Shown in pieces: positions 3,459 through 34,820 of a stretch of DNA of 40,137 nt. The translations under genes and the position numbers were made by a program. The notes under the pieces are model-generated. The model was given only the letters and a program-made list of their open reading frames with translations. It searched no databases and was not told where the DNA came from. The stretch lies in sequence record OW991346; one strand, given 5' to 3'. The stretch comes from Escherichia phage vB_Eco_Bam. The first letter of the stretch is position 1, and each line of letters starts with the position of its first letter.

Positions 3459-4184
3459 ATGTTAGGTGGAGCACCATTTCAGATTGTACAACCTAAAGAG
3501 CCAGTGAAGTTCGGTGGATTAGGTCACGCTAATGTAGGCATAAAGTCATTACCTAAAGACCGTGGTGTATCATGGTCTGACTTCTATAAGGGTCGCTTAG
3601 GTCAGTCCTATGTTAGTCATGTGTACAAGAACTATAAGGTACATATTGAAGCTATTCGCAGATACATCATTCAGCTATCGCTCAGTAAGAACAGCTCAAT
3701 CAAACCACTACGTGTAGTCGAAGCTGGTTGTGGTATCGGGTCTATCACACTGAACCTTGCTGATATGTCAGACCATAAGACAGTTATCTGCTCAGGCTTT
3801 GATGTGTCAGAAGGACAAGTTGTTAACTCTCGTGAGAACGCATTGCTTAACAATGTGGGTGACAGAGTGTCCTTTCATAAAGGTGACATCTTTAATAGTG
3901 ACGTATATAAAGATGCCCACATCATTCACTCTCATGGTGTCTTAGAACACTTCAGTGACGATGACATTATGAAAATCCTATTGACACAACTCAGTTCTCC
4001 TAACGTTCGGTATGTCATTCACTATGTACCACTGGAAGGATGGAAGACTCCCTCTTATGGTGATGAACGCCTGTTACCGCTGACACATTGGGTCAATGAG
4101 TTCGCTCCTACCCGTACCGTTGCGTTCAACGATGGTAAAGACGCTGTGCTAATCTGGGACGTTGAGTCTTTACTTCGCAATTAA
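3459..4184 (+). CDS. class I SAM-dependent methyltransferase (substrate unknown)
   Basis: 241 aa; motif I VVEAGCGIGSIT, acidic post-I residue in ICSGFDVSE, motif II VSFHKGDIFN, motif III HSHGVLEHF. No DPPY/NPPY amino-methyltransferase motif seen. Downstream of a phage promoter. Confidence 0.8.
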   Translation: MLGGAPFQIVQPKEPVKFGGLGHANVGIKSLPKDRGVSWSDFYKGRLGQSYVSHVYKNYKVHIEAIRRYIIQLSLSKNSSIKPLRVVEAGCGIGSITLNLADMSDHKTVICSGFDVSEGQVVNSRENALLNNVGDRVSFHKGDIFNSDVYKDAHIIHSHGVLEHFSDDDIMKILLTQLSSPNVRYVIHYVPLEGWKTPSYGDERLLPLTHWVNEFAPTRTVAFNDGKDAVLIWDVESLLRN

Positions 4185-4282: not shown

Positions 4283-5254
4283 ATGTTTACAATCAATCCG
4301 GCAAAGCCAGTAGCGTACAAAGAGTCAGCGATTCAGAAAGCTCTGGACAAGTCCGGTTCCCTAATCGCAGACCGCAAGTACGATGGAGTCCGTTGCCACA
4401 TCGTGATTAAACCCACGGCTGACATCAATGGTCGTCCTGCTGCCCGTGCGTACTTCCTGAGTCGTACTAACAAGATGATTGCTGCCTTGCGTAGTGCTTG
4501 GTTGAGCAACGAGGAGCAGCTAGCCTTGGGTCAATTCCTGCAAGAGTCACGCTGGCCTGAAGGCATTGTGCTGGACGGGGAGGCGATGGTTAAAGGTATG
4601 GACTTCAATGCTTCTTCAGGTCGCCTGCGGTCAGACGCTCAGTTACCACTAAGTCAATTGACCTATGTGCTGTACGGTGTGTTGCCTGCTTCTGAGTTGG
4701 AAGCATCCGAGACTGCTGACTTGAGTCTGTCCAATGTGATGATTCAGGTTATCTCTCAAGTCACCATCCATCAGCTAAAGGAACTGCTGAAACCTATTGA
4801 CTGGCAACTGGCTGAGTCATGGGACGTGTACGACATGGAGCAAATCAATGAGCTGTTTGAAGAACAGTTATCATTAGGCCGTGAAGGTCTGGTACTTAAA
4901 GACCCTATGGCACCGTGGAAGCGCGGAAAGAAAACCGGATGGTGGAAGGTGAAGAACGAAGACACCATTGACGGTAATGTAGTTGGCGTAGTGTGGGGAA
5001 CTGAAGGCAAGGCCAATGAAGGCAAAGTGATTGGCTTCGAGGTCTTACTAGAGAATGGCGTTGTGGTGAATGCCTGTGGTCTGACTCAAGACCAGATGGT
5101 TCGATTCACTAGCAACATCAAGTTGAACCCTGATTACTACAAAGATTGGGCTGTTCAGGTTAAGTTCATGGAGCGTACACCTGATGGTTCACTGCGTCAC
5201 CCTAGCTTTGACTGCTGGCGTGGCATGGCTGGGCATGAAACGGAGAAAATGTAA
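4283..5254 (+). CDS. gp1.3: ATP-dependent DNA ligase (T7 gene 1.3-like)
   Basis: Ligase motif I KYDGVRC (adenylation lysine). ATG at 4283 follows RBS GGAGGT; the track ORF begins at an upstream TTG at 4268. Confidence 0.9.
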   Translation: MFTINPAKPVAYKESAIQKALDKSGSLIADRKYDGVRCHIVIKPTADINGRPAARAYFLSRTNKMIAALRSAWLSNEEQLALGQFLQESRWPEGIVLDGEAMVKGMDFNASSGRLRSDAQLPLSQLTYVLYGVLPASELEASETADLSLSNVMIQVISQVTIHQLKELLKPIDWQLAESWDVYDMEQINELFEEQLSLGREGLVLKDPMAPWKRGKKTGWWKVKNEDTIDGNVVGVVWGTEGKANEGKVIGFEVLLENGVVVNACGLTQDQMVRFTSNIKLNPDYYKDWAVQVKFMERTPDGSLRHPSFDCWRGMAGHETEKM

Positions 5255-5322
5255 TGACTGTAGCCGTTATGTTCTTGGTTGTCGTAGGTCTGAGTATTGC
5301 AGCCTATGTGTCATCTCATTAA
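5254..5322 (+). CDS. possible 22-aa hydrophobic peptide
   Basis: ATG overlaps the ligase stop (TAATG); GGAG 8 nt upstream; product MTVAVMFLVVVGLSIAAYVSSH is a single hydrophobic helix. Very short; speculative. Confidence 0.2.
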   Translation: MTVAVMFLVVVGLSIAAYVSSH

Positions 5323-5342
5323 TTATCACCCACTATTGGAGA
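5321..5342 (+). promoter_or_regulatory. phage RNAP promoter (AATTATCACCCACTATTGGAGA)
   Basis: One mismatch to consensus. Confidence 0.65.
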
Positions 5343-5347
5343 ACATC

Positions 5348-5467
5348 ATGTTTATTTCCTATTGTTCACTGCTTGGTGCATCCTGTGGGTCTGCTCACGA
5401 GACGAACACCGTTGCAAATACTGTGGCGCTCCTTACTCTGAGTGCTTCTGTAAACATTCCTAATTAA
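5348..5467 (+). CDS. possible 39-aa protein
   Basis: ATG immediately after the promoter at 5321-5342; product MFISYCSLLGASCGSAHETNTVANTVALLTLSASVNIPN. No clear RBS. Confidence 0.2.
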   Translation: MFISYCSLLGASCGSAHETNTVANTVALLTLSASVNIPN

Positions 5468-5483
5468 CCACCACTATTGGAGA
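5462..5483 (+). promoter_or_regulatory. phage RNAP promoter, variant (AATTAACCACCACTATTGGAGA)
   Basis: Two mismatches in the upstream half; precedes the dNMP kinase. Confidence 0.6.
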
Positions 5484-5491
5484 ACATCATT

Positions 5492-6232
5492 ATGATTCAT
5501 GTACATCTGCCAACAATCATTGGTATCTGCGCTCATGCACCACGTTCAGGTAAAGACACTCTGGCTGACTACATCGAGCGAGAAGCTGAGACCAAGGGTC
5601 TGCGCTATTTCCGTATTGCCTTCGGTGACTTGCTGCGTGAGGTAGTATCAACACTGTTCGGTATGAACTCTCGTGACTACGTTATGGCTGCTCTGCTGGG
5701 TTCCATGAAAGACGTAGCTCATGGTCGGTACAGTATCCGTAACCTAGAGAACGAATCCCTTAAAGAGTTCCTGATTGGAACCTTGGGATTAGACCCAGAC
5801 GAACCACGTTCCCCACGTTTCTATATGCAGCGTGTAGGCAACGACTACGTTAAGGGTCACTTAGGTCTTGAGAGCATGTGGGTTGACGCTGTGGGTACAC
5901 AGATTACCACTCGCCTGTTGTACGGTAACGCTCCTGACTTGGTGATTATCACAGATGTCCGCTCACCTAATGAGTTCGACTATGTGACTGAATGTGGGTT
6001 CTCGGTTGAAGTTAAGACTCAGGGCTTCCCTGCCTTGACTCACTCTGCTAAACCTGACACCTCTCACCCTGTAGAGAATCACCGCTTTGACTGTGACTTT
6101 GTGTTCACCAATGTGTATGGTGACATGCAGTCCCTTCAGTATCAGCTCCGTGAGTCTGGTCTGATTGATGCAGTCATTGAGCGTAACGAGATATTGAAGC
6201 AACGTGTATTTGAACAGGAGGATTACCAGTGA
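5492..6232 (+). CDS. deoxynucleoside monophosphate kinase, T4 gp1-like P-loop type
   Basis: P-loop context GICAHAPRSGKDTLADYI resembles the T4 dNMP kinase N-terminus (SGVKRSGKDTTADFI) from memory. Unlike T7 gp1.7, which lacks this P-loop. Track ORF begins at TTG 5477; ATG at 5492 chosen. Confidence 0.7.
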   Translation: MIHVHLPTIIGICAHAPRSGKDTLADYIEREAETKGLRYFRIAFGDLLREVVSTLFGMNSRDYVMAALLGSMKDVAHGRYSIRNLENESLKEFLIGTLGLDPDEPRSPRFYMQRVGNDYVKGHLGLESMWVDAVGTQITTRLLYGNAPDLVIITDVRSPNEFDYVTECGFSVEVKTQGFPALTHSAKPDTSHPVENHRFDCDFVFTNVYGDMQSLQYQLRESGLIDAVIERNEILKQRVFEQEDYQ

Positions 6233-6396
6233 AGCGATTCGTTATCCATCTTGAACGTGAAGGTTCCAATGAGGAAGAACGCACTGTTATCTTGGCGCGT
6301 GACCTAGACCATGCACTAGACAAAGCTCACTCTTTGTACGGTGAGGACGTGGTAACTCGTGTCCGTCCTGAATTAACACCCACTATTGGAAACTAA
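6229..6396 (+). CDS. gp2: host RNA polymerase inhibitor (T7 gp2-like)
   Basis: 55-aa ORF missing from the ORF track (below its length cut-off). GTG start 6 nt after RBS AGGAGGA; C-terminal ...GEDVVTRVRPELTP matches the T7 gp2 ...FEVTRVRPCVAPK region. Confidence 0.75.
   Translation: MKRFVIHLEREGSNEEERTVILARDLDHALDKAHSLYGEDVVTRVRPELTPTIGN
6371..6392 (+). promoter_or_regulatory. phage RNAP promoter (AATTAACACCCACTATTGGAAA)
   Basis: Consensus match inside the 3' end of the gp2-like gene. Confidence 0.7.
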
Positions 6397-6970: not shown

Positions 6971-8867
<1,897 letters not shown>

Positions 8868-9050
8868 ATGAAAGGTGCTATTATCTTCTACATTGTGATG
8901 ACTCTGCTGGCTTGTGCTGGTTGGATTACCAACATCGTCAATGTAATTACAGGCTTCCACCATGAGGTCGGTATCCTGTTTGTTGCTCAGTGCTTTGGCA
9001 TCGCCGCCTTCCCTCTTGGGTCTGTGCTGGGCATCGCCTCTTGGTTCTAA
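8868..9050 (+). CDS. hypothetical small membrane protein (two predicted TM helices)
   Basis: 60 aa; two hydrophobic segments; GGAGA 7 nt upstream of ATG. Confidence 0.5.
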   Translation: MKGAIIFYIVMTLLACAGWITNIVNVITGFHHEVGILFVAQCFGIAAFPLGSVLGIASWF

Positions 9051-9052
9051 CT

Positions 9053-9074
9053 AATTAACCCTGACTATTGGAAA
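9053..9074 (+). promoter_or_regulatory. phage promoter-like element, divergent (AATTAACCCTGACTATTGGAAA)
   Basis: Three changes in the recognition region (CCCTGACT vs CACCCACT); may be weak or non-functional. Confidence 0.4.
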
Positions 9075-9095
9075 CTAACATAAGGAGAATACACT

Positions 9096-9371
9096 ATGTC
9101 TATCGTTGCTAAAGTTCTGCCCGCTGTTCTGCGCTTTGTTATTCGTGCTTCTGTTAAAGCTCTGACCTCTGAGGTTAACGGCTCTGAAGCCAAGCGTAAG
9201 GCAATCCAAAAGAAACACGATGCGAAAGAAGCAAAGCTGCACACTAAGATTGAGGAGCTGCGCAAGCAACGTGAAGCTATCCGGTCTGCTCGTACCGAAG
9301 AAGTGTTTGCCAATACACGTAAGACACAGCAAGCACAAGACATGCTGGACAAACTGAGCAAGCTCGCCTAA
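9096..9371 (+). CDS. hypothetical coiled-coil protein
   Basis: 91 aa; RBS AAGGAGA; amphipathic N-terminus then charged helical region. Confidence 0.55.
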   Translation: MSIVAKVLPAVLRFVIRASVKALTSEVNGSEAKRKAIQKKHDAKEAKLHTKIEELRKQREAIRSARTEEVFANTRKTQQAQDMLDKLSKLA

Positions 9372-9411
9372 CAGTGTAAGACTAAAGGTCATTCTTCGGA
9401 GTGGCCTTTGT
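9367..9411 (+). promoter_or_regulatory. RNase III-type processing site (two-stem hairpin)
   Basis: Same conserved upper stem AAGGTCATTC-TTCG-GAGTGGCCTT; lower stem TGTAA / TTACA. Confidence 0.5.
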
Positions 9412-9456
9412 GAGTTACATTGTAAACAACCTGTAAATAAATAAGGAGGACTCCTA

Positions 9457-10182
9457 ATGTCAACTAAGCCACAAAAGAAAATGTACACAACTCCGGTCGG
9501 TGTCGTAGGTGCATATCCTTACCTGCAACGTCCTGACAAGGGTAACGAGAAGTTCCCTAAGCCTCGCGGTGAGTGGAGCTGTAAGCTGCTGATTCCTAGT
9601 GCTCAAGCACAAAAGGTAGTAGACCTGATTGTGAAGGCTTCCGAGGCCAACTATCAGAACTACCTTGAGAACATTCATCCTAAGCGTCTGGCCGAAGCGA
9701 AAGCAAAAGGTAAGCGTCCGCCTAAGCAACTGGATGAAGCACAGTACCCATTCTATGAAGACGACCAAGGTAACGTAGTATTCACCTTCAAGAGTCACGC
9801 TTCATACCAAGACAAGTCTGGTGAGACTAAAGAGATTACTCTGCGTGTCTACGACTGCCAAGGTAAGCGCATTCAGGTAGTACCTAACATCTGCAATGGT
9901 TCTGAGGGTCGTGTTGAGTTCTCACTCGTGCCTTACGTCTCCGAAGTCGCTAACGTTGGTATCAAGCTGCAACTTGAGAAGTTCCAACTGTTGAAGCTGA
10001 AGGAATGGACAGGCAATGACACCTTCGGTGGTGGCGCTGTGGAAGGCTATGAAGATGGCTTCAAGGCTGATGAATTTAGTGGTGAAGGCACAGGCTTTGA
10101 AGACCACGACTACAGCGATGATGAACCTGCTGGTGGTACTGCTCAGGACTACCACGAAGACACTACCTACGGTGACTTCTAA
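9457..10182 (+). CDS. gp2.5: single-stranded DNA-binding protein (T7 gp2.5-like)
   Basis: 241 aa; acidic C-terminal tail ending in F (...TTYGDF); core LVPYVSEVANVGIKLQLEKF resembles T7 gp2.5; RBS AAGGAGGA. Confidence 0.9.
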   Translation: MSTKPQKKMYTTPVGVVGAYPYLQRPDKGNEKFPKPRGEWSCKLLIPSAQAQKVVDLIVKASEANYQNYLENIHPKRLAEAKAKGKRPPKQLDEAQYPFYEDDQGNVVFTFKSHASYQDKSGETKEITLRVYDCQGKRIQVVPNICNGSEGRVEFSLVPYVSEVANVGIKLQLEKFQLLKLKEWTGNDTFGGGAVEGYEDGFKADEFSGEGTGFEDHDYSDDEPAGGTAQDYHEDTTYGDF

Positions 10183-10631
10183 TGGCTAGGACTCCGGTAC
10201 GAAAACACAATGTGAGTGCGTATCGGTCTGGCCTAGAGGAAAAGATTGCGGGTCAGCTTGAACAGGCTGGCCTGCCAGTACGCTTCGAGGAGGCATACAT
10301 TAAGTATGTCATCCCTGAGTCAGACCATAAGTACACACCTGACTTCATCCTACCTAACGGTATCATCATTGAGTCAAAGGGTCTGTTCGATGTAGACGAT
10401 AGGAAGAAACACCTGTTGCTCAAAGACCAGTATCCTGAGTTAGACATCCGGTTTGTGTTCTCTCGATCAGCCACTAAGCTGTACAAGGGAGCCAAGACCA
10501 CGTATGCCGATTGGTGTGAACGTTATGGTTTTCAGTATGCTGACAAACTGATTCCGCCTAACTGGTTACGTGAATCCCATAAACCTATTCCAGAAGGAGT
10601 ATTGATACCTAAAGGAGGTAAATCAAAATGA
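10182..10631 (+). CDS. gp3: endonuclease I, Holliday-junction resolvase (T7 gp3-like)
   Basis: 149 aa, same length as T7 gp3; blocks YTPDFILPNGIIIESKGLFDVDDRKKHLL and KLYKG match T7 gp3. Confidence 0.93.
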   Translation: MARTPVRKHNVSAYRSGLEEKIAGQLEQAGLPVRFEEAYIKYVIPESDHKYTPDFILPNGIIIESKGLFDVDDRKKHLLLKDQYPELDIRFVFSRSATKLYKGAKTTYADWCERYGFQYADKLIPPNWLRESHKPIPEGVLIPKGGKSK

Positions 10632-11083
10632 AGACTAAATTTAAGAAACGTCCTGAGACTACCAAGATTGTAGTCCACTGTTCGGCTACCCGTGAGGACA
10701 AAGACTTTGGTGTGCGTGACATCCGCCTGTGGCATAAAGCTAAAGGTTGGCTGGATGTAGGCTACCACTACGTTATCAAGCGTGATGGTACTATCGAAGA
10801 AGGTCGTCCTGATGATGTAATCGGTGCAGGTGCAGAGGGTCACAACACTGACTCAATCCACATCTGTCTGGTTGGTGGTCTGGACAAGGAGGGCAATACA
10901 CTCGAAGGCTTCCACAATGCGTTCACTGACGCTCAGGAGGTGTCTCTGTTCCACCTGATTGCTGCAATGGAGGAGAAGTATCCTACCGTTCGCGTAGTGT
11001 GTGGACACCGCGACCTGCCTCGTGTAGCCAAAGCGTGTCCTTGCTTCGATGTCGTTAAGTGGCTGGAAGAAGTGGTAGTCTAA
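10628..11083 (+). CDS. gp3.5: lysozyme / N-acetylmuramoyl-L-alanine amidase (T7 gp3.5-like)
   Basis: 151 aa, same length as T7 lysozyme; VHCSAT, WLDVGYHYVIKRDGT, ICLVGG match T7 gp3.5. Confidence 0.95.
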   Translation: MKTKFKKRPETTKIVVHCSATREDKDFGVRDIRLWHKAKGWLDVGYHYVIKRDGTIEEGRPDDVIGAGAEGHNTDSIHICLVGGLDKEGNTLEGFHNAFTDAQEVSLFHLIAAMEEKYPTVRVVCGHRDLPRVAKACPCFDVVKWLEEVVV

Positions 11084-13774: not shown

Positions 13775-14110
13775 ATGGCTGCGCGTAAAACGCCTGTTGT
13801 TCGACCTCTCCGCTTCCATACTCACCCTAATGGGTGTATCACCTGCGTATCTCATAAAGCCAACCATGATGGATACTTTCGTTACAAGGTTGGTTCATCC
13901 CGTAATGGGACTGCCAAGATGTTCATGTTCCACCGATTCGTCTGGGAGCATAAGCATGGTGAGATACCAGAAGGCTACACTATTAACCACAAATGTAAGA
14001 ATCGAGGTTGCCAAAATGTAGACCATATGGAATTACTGAGTGTCACTGAACACGCTGCGGAGACTAATCGAAACAGATACAGGAAGATTAAACACCCACT
14101 ATTGGAGTAA
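13775..14110 (+). CDS. HNH endonuclease (putative homing endonuclease)
   Basis: 111 aa; HNH-type motif HRFVWEHKHGEIPEGYTINHKCKNRGCQNVDHMELLSVTEH; RBS AAGGAGGT. The 3' end overlaps a phage promoter. Confidence 0.8.
   Translation: MAARKTPVVRPLRFHTHPNGCITCVSHKANHDGYFRYKVGSSRNGTAKMFMFHRFVWEHKHGEIPEGYTINHKCKNRGCQNVDHMELLSVTEHAAETNRNRYRKIKHPLLE
14087..14108 (+). promoter_or_regulatory. phage RNAP promoter, variant (ATTAAACACCCACTATTGGAGT)
   Basis: Core CACCCACTATTGGAG intact, upstream AT-rich part shifted; lies within the 3' end of the HNH gene. Confidence 0.5.
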
Positions 14111-21929: not shown

Positions 21930-24320
21930 ATGGGACTTGTCTCACAATCAATCAAGAACCTGAAGGGTGGTATCAGTCAACAACCTGACATCCTTCGGTT
22001 TGCAGACCAAGGGGAGAAGCAAGTCAATGCGTTCTCCTCAGAGGTTGAGGGTCTACAGAAACGACCTCCAAGCACTCACGTCAACCGATTGGCAGACCAC
22101 GGTGCTCTCAGTGAGAAACCTTATTGTCACGTAATCAACCGTGATGAACAAGAGAAGTACGTTCTGTTCTTCGGGAACAACACTGTGTACGCATACAATC
22201 TATTGACAGGTTTGTATGTTCCAGTGAACTTCCCTAGTGGTGCTTCTTACATTGCCACTGCGAACCCGCGTAAAGACTTACGAATGGTTACCGTAGCGGA
22301 CTTCACCTTTATCATCAACCGTAATGTGGTAGTACAGGAAGGTTCCACTCGGACACCGATGCACTACCAACAAGGTAAACATGGTCTTGTATATTGCCGT
22401 GGTGGCCAATATGCTCGTACCTATCAGATTATTCTGAATGGTGCAGTGCAGGCTACCTATACGGCTCCACTAGGTGACCAAGTAGCCCATGCCAAAGAGA
22501 TTGACACTCAGTTTATCTTGACTAAGCTGGCAGAGAACTTCAACGCTAACCTAAGCCAACACGGATGGTCAGCGTCAGTTCAGGATGGTTACCTGTGGAT
22601 TCAAGCAGGTGGAAACACTATCACTTCCCTGAAGGTAGTGGACGGCTTCAACGGGCAACTGTTGGATTGTATAACTTATTCAGCACAGAAGACCGTAGAC
22701 CTTCCGGTTACAGCTCCCGATAAATACCAAGTGTTAATCTCAGGAGATGCAGCTCAAGGTCAGGATGACTTCTGGGTTCAGTATGATGGTCAACGCCGTG
22801 TATGGACTGAAATCCCTGCACCTAACATCATTGCTGACCTGAACAAGAATACCATGCCTTGGGTGATGATTCGTGAGGCAGACGGTAACTTTACCCTACG
22901 TCCTACCGATTGGTCTACCCGTGGTAGTGGTGACGATGACACTAACCCGATGCCTTCCTTTGTGGGTCAGACAATCAACGATGTGTTCTTCTTCCGTAAC
23001 CGTTTAGGTTTTCTGAGCGGTGAGAACGTTGTGATGTCTGAGGCAGGGTCATACTTCAACTTCTTCCCTCGGTCTGTTGCTGTGACTTCTGATAGTGACC
23101 CTATTGACGTTGCTGTATCAACTAACCGGATTAGTATCTTGAAGTACGCTGTGCCATTCTCTGAGGAACTGCTATTATGGTCTGACCAAAGCCAGTTCGT
23201 AATGACTGCCGATGGTATTCTGACTCCTACGTCTGTCCGCTTGGATATGACCACTGAGTTCGAGGTGACCGATAGTGCTCGCCCTTACGGTATTGGCCGT
23301 GGTGTTTACTTCATTGCACCTCGCGCTAAGTTCTCCTCAGTGCGGCGTTACTATGCTGTGCAGGACGTTACTCAGGTGAAGAACGCTGAGGACGTTACAG
23401 CTCACGTACCGAGTTACATCCCTAATGGTGTACACAAAGTCACCGGTAGTTCCATTGAGAACTTGCTTACCGTGTTGACCGAGGGTGCTCCACATAAGGT
23501 GTTCCTTTACAAGTTCCTGTACTTGGAAGAACAGATTGCCCAGCAGTCTTGGTCTGAGTGGGACTTTGGGGAAGGTTCTCGTGTACTGTGCTGTGACATG
23601 ATGGGAGCTATTATGCACCTCGTGATTGATGCCCCTTCTGGTATCTACATGGAACGCATTGAGTTCACTCAGAACACTAAGGACTATCCTAACGAACCGT
23701 ACCGTTTGTATATGGACAGAAAGATTCGTTACACCATCCCTAGTGGCGCATACAACGATGACAACTTTGAGACTACTATCTACTTGCAGAACGTGTATGG
23801 TGCTAAGCCTCAGTACGGTAAGTATTTCGTAGTGTTAGAATCTGGTGTCGTGTATGAGTTCGACCCGCCTGATGGTGGTTGGGCTGCGTCAGATGGTGGT
23901 CTTCGCATCAACGGAAACCTTGAAGGTTACAACGTGTTCATCGGTGAGCAGTACACCATGCTGTATCAGTTCTCCAAGTTCCTTATTAAGTCTGTTGATA
24001 CTAATGGTGGTACAACTACTGAGGACATCGGTCGCTTACAATTGCGCCGCGCTTGGGTTAACTACGACAAGTCAGGCGACTTCCGTATCCAAGTTGAGAA
24101 TCAAGGTCGAGTGTTCACGTACAACATGACAGGTCGCCGCTTAGGGACTAAACAACTGGTACTTGGTGAGCAGAACCTAGATACAGGACAATTTAAGTAC
24201 CCTGTGTCAGGTAACGCCAAGGTGGTTAACATTACGTTGCTATCCGATGCCCCAAGCCCTGTTGCTATCATTGGTGGTGGATGGGAAGGTAACTACATCA
24301 GACGTTCATCTGGTATTTAA
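21930..24320 (+). CDS. gp12: tail tubular protein B (T7 gp12-like)
   Basis: 796 aa (T7 gp12 is 794 aa); position after gp11; RBS AAGGAGG. Confidence 0.92.
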   Translation: MGLVSQSIKNLKGGISQQPDILRFADQGEKQVNAFSSEVEGLQKRPPSTHVNRLADHGALSEKPYCHVINRDEQEKYVLFFGNNTVYAYNLLTGLYVPVNFPSGASYIATANPRKDLRMVTVADFTFIINRNVVVQEGSTRTPMHYQQGKHGLVYCRGGQYARTYQIILNGAVQATYTAPLGDQVAHAKEIDTQFILTKLAENFNANLSQHGWSASVQDGYLWIQAGGNTITSLKVVDGFNGQLLDCITYSAQKTVDLPVTAPDKYQVLISGDAAQGQDDFWVQYDGQRRVWTEIPAPNIIADLNKNTMPWVMIREADGNFTLRPTDWSTRGSGDDDTNPMPSFVGQTINDVFFFRNRLGFLSGENVVMSEAGSYFNFFPRSVAVTSDSDPIDVAVSTNRISILKYAVPFSEELLLWSDQSQFVMTADGILTPTSVRLDMTTEFEVTDSARPYGIGRGVYFIAPRAKFSSVRRYYAVQDVTQVKNAEDVTAHVPSYIPNGVHKVTGSSIENLLTVLTEGAPHKVFLYKFLYLEEQIAQQSWSEWDFGEGSRVLCCDMMGAIMHLVIDAPSGIYMERIEFTQNTKDYPNEPYRLYMDRKIRYTIPSGAYNDDNFETTIYLQNVYGAKPQYGKYFVVLESGVVYEFDPPDGGWAASDGGLRINGNLEGYNVFIGEQYTMLYQFSKFLIKSVDTNGGTTTEDIGRLQLRRAWVNYDKSGDFRIQVENQGRVFTYNMTGRRLGTKQLVLGEQNLDTGQFKYPVSGNAKVVNITLLSDAPSPVAIIGGGWEGNYIRRSSGI

Positions 24321-24336
24321 CACCCACTATTGGAGA
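24315..24336 (+). promoter_or_regulatory. phage RNAP promoter (ATTTAACACCCACTATTGGAGA) upstream of the deoxynucleoside kinase
   Basis: Consensus match overlapping the gp12 stop. Confidence 0.75.
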
Positions 24337-24353
24337 CATAACACCCACAACCT

Positions 24354-24379
24354 GAGGGTCACTATATTTAGTGGCTCTC
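24354..24379 (+). other. leader hairpin upstream of the deoxynucleoside kinase RBS
   Basis: GAGGGTCACTA-TATT-TAGTGGCTCTC, 11-bp stem with two G-U pairs, then TTTTAT and the RBS GGAGG. Confidence 0.5.
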
Positions 24380-24397
24380 TTTTATGGAGGAATTTTA

Positions 24398-25027
24398 ATG
24401 AGAATTGTAGTTATTGAAGCTAACATTGGTGCAGGTAAATCCACTTTGTTACAACCTCTTGTGGATGAACTTCAGCTATGGTCTGGTGAAGATTGGGACT
24501 TAGTGATTGAACCAGTAGACCAAGACCCTGAGTTCCACCGTCTGTTGAAAGAAATGATTGCCGATATGTCTAACCCAGACAAGCGTATTCGTTTCCAGAT
24601 GTACCTGACCGAGCAGCGTCAACAACTGTTAAAGAACTTACCTGATGGAAACTATGTCGTTGAACGCTCTCTGTTCAGTGACCTTGTGTTCTCCCAGATG
24701 TATTTCTTAACGACTGAGAAACCTTCTGCCGAGTACATGAATTATTACTACAACATCAAGGAACGTCTGAAAGACTACCCTCAGATTGATTGTGTCGTGT
24801 ACTTAGACCGTGACCCTGCGTCTTGCCATGAGTCCATCATCAAGCGTGGTCGTGAAGGTGAGCACTATGAGATGCACTATCTGGAAGACCTAAAGCGTTT
24901 CCACGATGCGTGTCTACCTCAGATTGCTCGTGAGTATAACACTAAGCTAATCACTGTGGACTTAGGTAAGACCTATGCTCTGCCTTCTGTGATTGCTGCT
25001 GATGTAATGGAGCACTTATATGGCTAA
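24398..25027 (+). CDS. deoxynucleoside kinase (dNK/dCK/dGK family)
   Basis: 209 aa; P-loop IEANIGAGKST, substrate-site EPV, ERS motif (VVERSLFSD) and arginine-rich LID KRGREGEHYE are the defining dNK-family signatures. Own phage promoter and RBS GGAGG. Confidence 0.8.
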   Translation: MRIVVIEANIGAGKSTLLQPLVDELQLWSGEDWDLVIEPVDQDPEFHRLLKEMIADMSNPDKRIRFQMYLTEQRQQLLKNLPDGNYVVERSLFSDLVFSQMYFLTTEKPSAEYMNYYYNIKERLKDYPQIDCVVYLDRDPASCHESIIKRGREGEHYEMHYLEDLKRFHDACLPQIAREYNTKLITVDLGKTYALPSVIAADVMEHLYG

Positions 25028-34475: not shown

Positions 34476-34820
34476 ATGTACTTAAACTATTCACAAGCTA
34501 TGCAGGCTTTGTTGGATGGTTATGATGTCATTCGGGAGAGCACAGGACGTGTTCTCTCTGTTGATAAGACCAACAACAATATGTTTGCCTACTGGCCTGA
34601 ACTTGGTGAAGGTCTGCGGGATACACCAATGAGTCAAGAAGACTTAGAGGCAACCGACTGGAAAATCTATGACCATAATGGTAACGATGCTCCTGAGGAC
34701 TCCTCTCAGTTCGACATCAAGGTTCCTGTGGACACCAAGCAACAACAAATTGATGAACTAACTGATAAGTTAGCAAATCTTGAACAGAAACTCATGGAGG
34801 TGCTAAATGCCAAGTCCTAA
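34476..34820 (+). CDS. hypothetical protein downstream of tail fiber
   Basis: 114 aa; strong RBS AAGGAGGA; acidic with a C-terminal coiled-coil-like segment; stop overlaps the next start. Confidence 0.6.
   Translation: MYLNYSQAMQALLDGYDVIRESTGRVLSVDKTNNNMFAYWPELGEGLRDTPMSQEDLEATDWKIYDHNGNDAPEDSSQFDIKVPVDTKQQQIDELTDKLANLEQKLMEVLNAKS

Follow-up and report, generated by a model that had tools for sequence, protein, structure and literature searches.

T7-type phages degrade host DNA to dNMPs with their own endonuclease and exonuclease, and these dNMPs need to be re-phosphorylated. Work from the Richardson laboratory reportedly showed that gene 1.7 makes T7 sensitive to dideoxythymidine. In T7, gp1.7 phosphorylates dTMP and dGMP according to two papers (PMC11897194, PMC7693777), the second of which reports it to be active without divalent cations. 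T7 gp1.7 is also a reported activator of Avs5, a SIR2-STAND defence protein of Escherichia fergusonii (PMC11897194). It belongs to the DUF3310 proteins (PF11753 match, 4.5e-23), and the motifs [AG]x4GK[ST] and GK[STD] are both absent from it, in keeping with a first-pass annotation of the DNA analysed here, which had taken gp1.7 to be without a P-loop. The DNMK family includes T4 gp1, with dGMP, dTMP and hm-dCMP as its substrates (PMC10653934), and T5 Dnk, a kinase of all four dNMPs (PMC8541194). Moreover, P. putida KT2440 depends on a member of this family for its essential dTMP kinase activity (PMC10653934). Genes of this kind have been known from T7-like phages since gh-1: in its record (2003), the gene flanked by ligase and gene 2 bears the remark 'similarity to deoxynucleotide monophosphate kinase of phage phiC31', and the finding as such is therefore not new. 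The annotation 'deoxynucleoside monophosphate kinase' stands on many T7-like phages of Pseudomonas, Aeromonas and Klebsiella, and the paper on JELG-KS1 (2024) explicitly pointed to an analogue in vB_Eco_Titus of the dNMP kinase ORF it described (PMC10974468). Thus the components are already known; our literature search found no paper that spells out the displacement between gp1.7 and a DNMK kinase.

Here we analysed a stretch of 40,137 nucleotides from Escherichia phage vB_Eco_Bam (record OW991346; hereafter the window), which is a whole T7-type genome with its first base at the ATG of the RNA polymerase gene. The 1.1 kb around the kinase gene shows 100% identity to Escherichia phage vB_Eco_Titus and 99.6% to vB_Eco_Mak, and the genome is of the vB_Eco_Titus/Mak type (Autographiviridae, Studiervirinae). 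From comparative sequence analysis we conclude that the ORF is very probably a DNMK-family dNMP kinase, a middle gene that does the job of gp1.7 in the interval between ligase and gene 2 (Table 1). The gene order in the window is ligase, one small ORF, kinase and gp2-like inhibitor, and that of T7 is ligase, 1.4, 1.5, 1.6, 1.7, 1.8 and gene 2. The kinase thus lies in the interval where T7 has gene 1.7, and the same genomic position had been proposed for it before. A search of the whole window with T7 gp1.7 (tblastn) found nothing beyond a 23-aa match at E 0.12, and a Pfam scan of 20 other unassigned or small window ORFs returned no match to DUF3310. On the downstream side, the GTG start of the gp2-like ORF overlaps the kinase stop codon; this ORF scores above the curated cut-off of PF16857, and tblastn with T7 gp2 matches it at E 0.012.

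The kinase ORF is not a chance ORF, since it has tblastn homologues in 238 phage records (E as low as 1e-37, excluding the Titus/Mak pair) and its family profile matched 22,510 cluster representatives at E <= 1e-3 in an exhaustive profile search. The DNMK-type kinase family is therefore very large. The promoter-like site directly upstream is one of 18 same-strand copies of a ATTAACACCCACTATTGGA-like promoter in the window, 0.13 being expected by chance. By alignment to the T7 promoter, its +1 would be G5479 and the transcript would start GGAGAAC..., and the 5′ end of this transcript would double as the Shine-Dalgarno sequence for the kinase gene. A TTG at 5477 is an alternative start among the ORF candidates and is the one used by the GenBank record of Mak. 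We rejected it and prefer ATG 5492, because the TTG falls inside the promoter, upstream of the ribosome-binding site and 5′ of the probable +1 (5479). A scan for terminators and sigma-70 promoters between 5150 and 6500 gave nothing beyond shuffled expectation.

Residues 11-28 of the kinase read GICAHAPRSGKDTLADYI, just as the first-pass annotation had given them. Searched as a single sequence, the kinase scores 26.4 bits against Pfam DNMK (PF21448; E 6e-6, best stretch residues 100-169), 0.7 bit short of the gathering score of 27.1. Orthologues fall on either side of this cut-off, NahiliMali gp17 above it (36.4 bits) and ICP3 orf10 below it (25.3 bits). PF21448 is precomputed on 8/8 close database homologues retrieved by a word-indexed protein search, and phrog_139 of PHROGs, 'deoxynucleoside monophosphate kinase', matches residues 7-221 at 4.1e-30. 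NCBIfam returned no model for the kinase, its adenylate-kinase match being at chance level only. Against the PDB, the single sequence had no phmmer match at E up to 10. A profile of 9 sequences ranked T4 dNMP kinase 1DEK first (4.4e-9), as did a profile of 80 sequences (7.7e-20, spanning residues 1-239 of 241), which then matched an animal phosphomevalonate kinase (1.2e-6) and adenylate kinases (about 1e-3).

The first-pass annotation had called the ORF a T4-type kinase unrelated to gp1.7, on account of a P-loop context like the N-terminus of T4 gp1, and had proposed a profile comparison with both proteins as a check. With hhalign, the 80-sequence profile aligns to T4 gp1 at 99.1% / 8.5e-19 and to T5 Dnk at 99.6% / 2.8e-24 over 201 columns, and its probability against T7 gp1.7 is 0.7%; a DUF3310 match is likewise absent from the kinase. 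The motif RSGKDTxAD[FY]I fits MKLIFLSGVKRSGKDTTADFI of T4 gp1 (N-terminus taken from the PDB 1DEK alignment, residues 1-239). Moreover, pairwise BLASTP of the kinase with T5 Dnk gives 4e-6, and T5-like (Demerecviridae) dNMP kinases are matched directly by tblastn. Because of the hhalign and BLASTP scores, we take T5 Dnk to be the closer characterised relative. The label 'T4-type' therefore stands at the family level, where both the 1DEK profile match and hhalign bear it out, and is refined as to the nearest relative. A best similarity to some unrelated P-loop NTPase without nucleotide-kinase residues, which had been named as the outcome that would speak against the assignment, was not what we found: T4 gp1 and T5 Dnk score best and almost all residues of the ATP and dNMP sites are kept.

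Residue roles were taken from the contacts in 1DEK/1DEL (Table 2 of PMC10653934) and transferred by aligning T4 gp1 with the family in MAFFT. All 80 homologues share G20, K21, K73, R109, D155, R157, E161 and N207 without exception, and at least 90% of them keep D22 and T23. At the first Walker-A position, five residues before the GK glycine (-5), the window kinase has His instead of Gly or Ala, a point that the first-pass annotation had not raised. Close relatives share the P-loop pattern [AS]xxP[RQ][SA]GKDT and roughly half of the 80 homologues are without Gly or Ala at -5, and the His is a conserved subfamily variant, not decay. Which residue corresponds to T4 R68 is ambiguous from the alignment; the invariant K73 is two residues off. 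T4 R197, an ATP-base contact in the lid, aligns to T176 with K175 adjoining, Arg being found there in 50/80 homologues. Within the pocket, T4 V144, Q178 and T140 are replaced by K121, S158 and N117, respectively. Because R197 and these pocket residues are not kept, the specificity of the window kinase may differ from that of T4 gp1. An AlphaFold2 model built from the 80-sequence alignment (pLDDT 92.9, pTM 0.88) has a P-loop alpha/beta core and a helical dNMP-binding domain, the two-domain fold of the family, with low confidence only in the loop 181-190 (mean pLDDT 58) and in the last few residues.

Table 1. Features of the kinase locus and of the deoxynucleoside kinase gene, with residue equivalences to T4 gp1 (window coordinates; residue numbers of the window kinase).
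Feature	Position	Strand	Basis or assigned role
ATP-dependent DNA ligase, T7 gene 1.3 homologue, upstream anchor	4283..5254	+	tblastn with T7 gp1.3, 6e-77
Phage-RNAP promoter-like site ATTAACCACCACTATTGGAGAAC, directly 5′ of kinase gene	5463..5485	+	Copy of ATTAACACCCACTATTGGA-like sequence
Ribosome-binding site GGAG, 8 nt before ATG 5492	5480..5483	+	Read from sequence
dNMP kinase gene, DNMK family (T4 gp1 / T5 Dnk type)	5492..6232	+	246 aa + stop; ATG 5492, TGA 6230-6232
P-loop / Walker A, A14-T23 (AHAPRSGKDT)	5531..5560	+	Alignment to T4 gp1
R18 S19 G20 K21 D22 T23 = T4 R11 S12 G13 K14 D15 T16			P-loop, ATP phosphates; identical RSGKDT
R49 = T4 K37			dNMP phosphate
Predicted dNMP-binding segment R106-D118, RSPRFYMQRVGND	5807..5845	+	Alignment to T4 gp1
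R109 = T4 R132			dNMP phosphate; invariant 80/80 homologues
M112 = T4 M135			Sugar
Q113 = T4 Q136			Pocket locking
W130 = T4 W152			Hydrophobic pocket
T154-D-V-R-S-P-N-E161 motif	5951..5974	+	Base- and phosphate-contacting residues
D155 = T4 D175			Base; invariant 80/80 homologues
R157 = T4 R177			Base and phosphate; invariant 80/80 homologues
E161 = T4 E181			Base; invariant 80/80 homologues
H192-P-V-E195 = T4 H206...E209	6065..6076	+	Lid / pocket-locking residues
N207 = T4 N223	6110..6112	+	ATP adenine contact; invariant 80/80 homologues
gp2-like inhibitor of host RNA polymerase, 55 aa, downstream neighbour	6229..6396	+	RNA_pol_inhib PF16857, 1.7e-8
Deoxynucleoside kinase, 218 aa, between gp12-like and gp13-like genes	24371..25027	+	Pfam dNK PF01712, 9.9e-21

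The same order of ligase, kinase and gp2, without gp1.7, is found in Klebsiella phage NahiliMali, Vibrio phage ICP3, Pseudomonas phage gh-1 and Aeromonas phage T7-Ah. Pseudomonas phage phi15 has the arrangement of the window within the part of its sequence that was examined, and in JELG-KS1 the kinase and gp2 occur in reversed order. Co-occurrence of the two kinases was judged from host-genus counts and from five complete genomes, none of which (0/5) contains both gp1.7 and a DNMK kinase. The 238 records with a DNMK kinase (tblastn) come from phages of Pseudomonas (136), Vibrio (29), Dickeya (16), Ralstonia (10), Proteus (8), Aeromonas (6) and others, and the 1307 records with gp1.7 from phages of Klebsiella (578), Escherichia (310), Salmonella (101), Yersinia (61) and others. 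The host genera are thus nearly complementary and almost non-overlapping. With the kinase at the locus, gp1.7 absent and host genera near-complementary, the pattern is consistent with one kinase displacing a non-orthologous one at a conserved locus, which bears out the replacement at the gp1.7 position suggested by the first-pass annotation. Position and complementary distribution are the grounds on which the kinase and gp1.7 would be functionally equivalent.

Catalytic activity, substrate range and expression timing are suggested by these comparisons. The two-domain P-loop enzyme would move the gamma-phosphate of ATP onto dNMPs to give dNDPs, and its gene would belong to the middle (DNA-metabolism) class, transcribed by the phage RNA polymerase from the 5463 promoter. 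The kinase would thereby increase the flux from dNMP to dNTP for phage replication, with the host dTMP and dGMP kinases as the likely bottlenecks; its most likely role is to boost the supply of dNDPs, at least for dTMP and dGMP. In the lineage of the window it would perform the task for which T7 has the unrelated, P-loop-less gp1.7. The window also encodes a deoxynucleoside kinase (dNK), the gene of which has a phage promoter-like site of its own (24316-24334) and orthologues at the equivalent place in ICP3 and T7-Ah (68-77% identity). This enzyme is a probable pathway partner of the dNMP kinase, and together they may provide two consecutive phage-encoded salvage steps, from dN to dNMP and on to dNDP.

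The ORF could also be a true DNMK kinase that is no substitute for gp1.7. The interval between ligase and gene 2 would then be a variable accessory-gene slot in which different needs are served, for instance by a dTMP kinase of narrow specificity, such as PP_1964 of P. putida, or by a four-substrate, T5 Dnk-like enzyme beside a phage dNK. The small ORFs in the interval do differ in every genome examined, and the clade of the window carries the extra dNK gene, which is absent in T7. Moreover, specificity varies within the family (three substrates for T4, four for T5 and probably dTMP for PP_1964), and the pocket residues K121, S158 and N117 are unlike those of T4; in PP_1964, too, the V144 position is basic (Arg), which the authors of PMC10653934 connect with narrower specificity. 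Against this, gp1.7 and the DNMK kinase never occur together in the five complete genomes, their host-genus distributions hardly overlap, and characterised members of both families act on dTMP and dGMP. We therefore consider it unlikely that the kinase is something other than a substitute, and we favour a displacement between the two unrelated kinases.

A kinase of the same fold might instead act on a substrate other than free dNMPs, such as phosphomevalonate, dephospho-CoA, modified bases or DNA. This would suit the atypical first position of Walker A and the outcome of a Foldseek search of the model against the PDB, where dephospho-CoA kinases came first, with poor TM-scores, and 1DEK was absent from the top 50. 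We read the failure to recover 1DEK as a miss of the method. T4 gp1 and T5 Dnk score far better than the enzymes in question, and the residues of 1DEK that bind the phosphate and base of the dNMP are invariant across the family, which makes another substrate very improbable. An animal-type phosphomevalonate kinase was rejected on its match (1.2e-6), which is weaker than that of 1DEK (7.7e-20). A role in DNA hypermodification, as a hydroxymethyl-pyrimidine kinase, was likewise dropped, because no thymidylate-synthase/hydroxymethylase-like gene was found among the window ORFs scanned against Pfam.

Lastly, the GenBank labels of this gene call for comment. The ORF is labelled 'Virion structural protein [Aeromonas phage PZL-Ah152]' in Titus and 'hypothetical protein' in Mak; the structural label is also carried by PZL-Ah152 and PZL-Ah8, and phi15 ORF15 (2011) is entered as 'virion structural protein; putative deoxynucleotide monophosphate kinase'. 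That the protein is a structural component of the virion, as the Titus label has it and as the presence of ORF15 in the phi15 particle proteome (2 peptides, 11.2% coverage) could suggest, is scarcely credible. Genuine structural proteins listed beside ORF15 have 24-30 peptides each, and its 2 peptides fit an abundant soluble protein carried over into the particles. The gene sits among those for DNA metabolism, a long way from the structural ones, its product has the fold and the active site expected of a soluble nucleotide kinase, and the phi15 authors' own annotation is that of a dNMP kinase. Both labels, 'virion structural protein' for Titus and 'hypothetical protein' for Mak, are erroneous, and the assignment as a dNMP kinase corrects these two database annotations. 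The weak proteomics match of phi15 appears to be the origin of the structural label, which would have reached Titus via PZL-Ah152, and the case shows how such a match can spread as a misleading label across several genomes.

Taken together, two unrelated nucleotide kinases in one slot of otherwise collinear T7-type genomes make a clean and checkable case of non-orthologous displacement. The pair of gp1.7 and DNMK kinase offers a convenient system in which to ask why T7-like phages need a dTMP/dGMP kinase of their own, and it also suits the question of whether the kinase swap alters sensitivity to defences that sense gp1.7. It can be imagined that the swap keeps the kinase function yet hides Titus, Mak and Bam from such defences and, separately, that dNK and the dNMP kinase form a self-sufficient two-step deoxynucleoside salvage route that is missing in T7; we regard this reading as improbable. 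A coliphage with an unrelated kinase in place of gp1.7 might, speculatively, escape sensing by Avs5.

T7 gp1.7 occupies the same genomic interval as the window kinase and presumably has the same role in phosphorylating dTMP and dGMP. There is no detectable sequence relationship between the two, and only the window kinase has a P-loop. T4 gp1 (1DEK/1DEL) is about 19-20% identical to the window kinase, in which the long insertion of the T4 helical domain (about residues 85-125) is much shorter and the lid Arg197 is not kept. Phosphorylation of hydroxymethyl-dCMP is a need of T4 that has no counterpart in the window phage. T5 Dnk (T5.043) belongs to the same family, is of similar length (250 aa vs 246 aa) and shares the core SPR..Q..G...W...ITDVR.PNE; moreover, T5 has canonical DNA, as T7-type phages do. 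However, identity to T5 Dnk is only about 22% in the profile alignment, the genomic context is unrelated, and the -5 position of Walker A is the canonical G in T5 Dnk (GEAGSGKDT) where the window kinase has His. The orthologues at the ligase-gene 2 locus, namely gh-1 '3B', phi15 ORF15, ICP3 orf10, JELG-KS1 ORF11 and NahiliMali gp17, are 27-39% identical to the window kinase and already bear annotations as putative dNMP kinases. The window kinase ends in a C-terminal helical extension of ~30 residues (~216-246) that is absent in most T7-like orthologues, whose matches cover 85-93% of the query. Coliphages of the T7 subfamily without gp1.7 and with a P-loop dNMP kinase, as Titus, Mak and Bam are, are rare. 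The host of the window phage is E. coli, whereas almost every other carrier of the kinase has a host outside Escherichia.

The Walker A motif of the kinase (5531-5560, residues 14-23) is non-canonical, carrying His at its first position (-5, counted from the GK glycine), which is normally occupied by Gly or Ala. Close relatives of the kinase share the pattern [AS]-x-x-P-[RQ]-[SA]-G-K-D-T, and in approximately half of the 80 homologues in the family alignment this position is neither Gly nor Ala, the others having the canonical G-x4-GKDT. In phages Titus, PZL-Ah152 and PZL-Ah8 the kinase bears the label 'virion structural protein', which we regard as a case of annotation propagation. In all three the label appears to derive from a match in the particle proteome of Pseudomonas phage phi15 (2 peptides, 11.2% coverage).

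Upstream of the kinase, over 5322-5467, a second promoter copy precedes a leader shared with the kinase gene (GGAGAACATCATG versus GGAGAACATCATTATG). If the transcript begins at the +1 inferred by analogy with the T7 promoter, the start codon of the small ORF in this region would be the ATG at 5349, giving 39 aa, instead of the start at 5306, which gives 53 aa and is the counterpart of the annotated Titus CDS start. A Pfam search with this small ORF returned no match.

Features of the window and of two related phage records.
Feature	Location	Strand	Basis
Second promoter copy	5322-5344		sequence match
SAM-dependent methyltransferase-like ORF, 241 aa	3459-4184	+	Methyltransf_31, 1.7e-10
HNH_3 homing-endonuclease-like ORF	13775-14110	+	HNH_3, 5.5e-14
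114-aa ORF after tail-fibre gene	34476-34820	+	weak Tad2-like match
Kinase CDS under 'virion structural protein' label	L001 (Titus record) 1047-1787
Kinase homologue	L006 (phi15 record) 3483-4157
Primase/helicase (gp4)	7176-8867
SSB (gp2.5)	9457-10182
Endonuclease I (gp3)	10182-10631
Amidase (gp3.5)	10628-11083
Deoxynucleoside kinase gene	24371-25027	+	Pfam dNK, 9.9e-21
Own phage promoter-like site of deoxynucleoside kinase gene	24316-24334		sequence match

The methyltransferase-like ORF sits between the RNA polymerase and ligase genes, a position at which T7 has no counterpart. The HNH_3 ORF lies directly after the DNA polymerase gene. The match of the 114-aa ORF to a Tad2-like (Thoeris anti-defence 2) domain (E 0.0022; 18.9 bits, below the cut-off of 25) could be due to chance.

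The deoxynucleoside kinase gene lies amid the structural genes, flanked by the genes for tail-tube B (gp12-like) and a gp13-like internal virion protein. Orthologues occupy the equivalent place in Aeromonas phage T7-Ah and in Vibrio phage ICP3, where the gene is labelled 'thymidylate kinase'; T7 has no gene between gp12 and gp13. Gene order also differs from that of T7 over 7176-11083, with gp4 located ahead of gp2.5, gp3 and gp3.5. The same gp4-first order is seen in T7-Ah. In ICP3 gene 4A likewise precedes 2.5-3-3.5, yet there the block comes after the genes for DNA polymerase and exonuclease.
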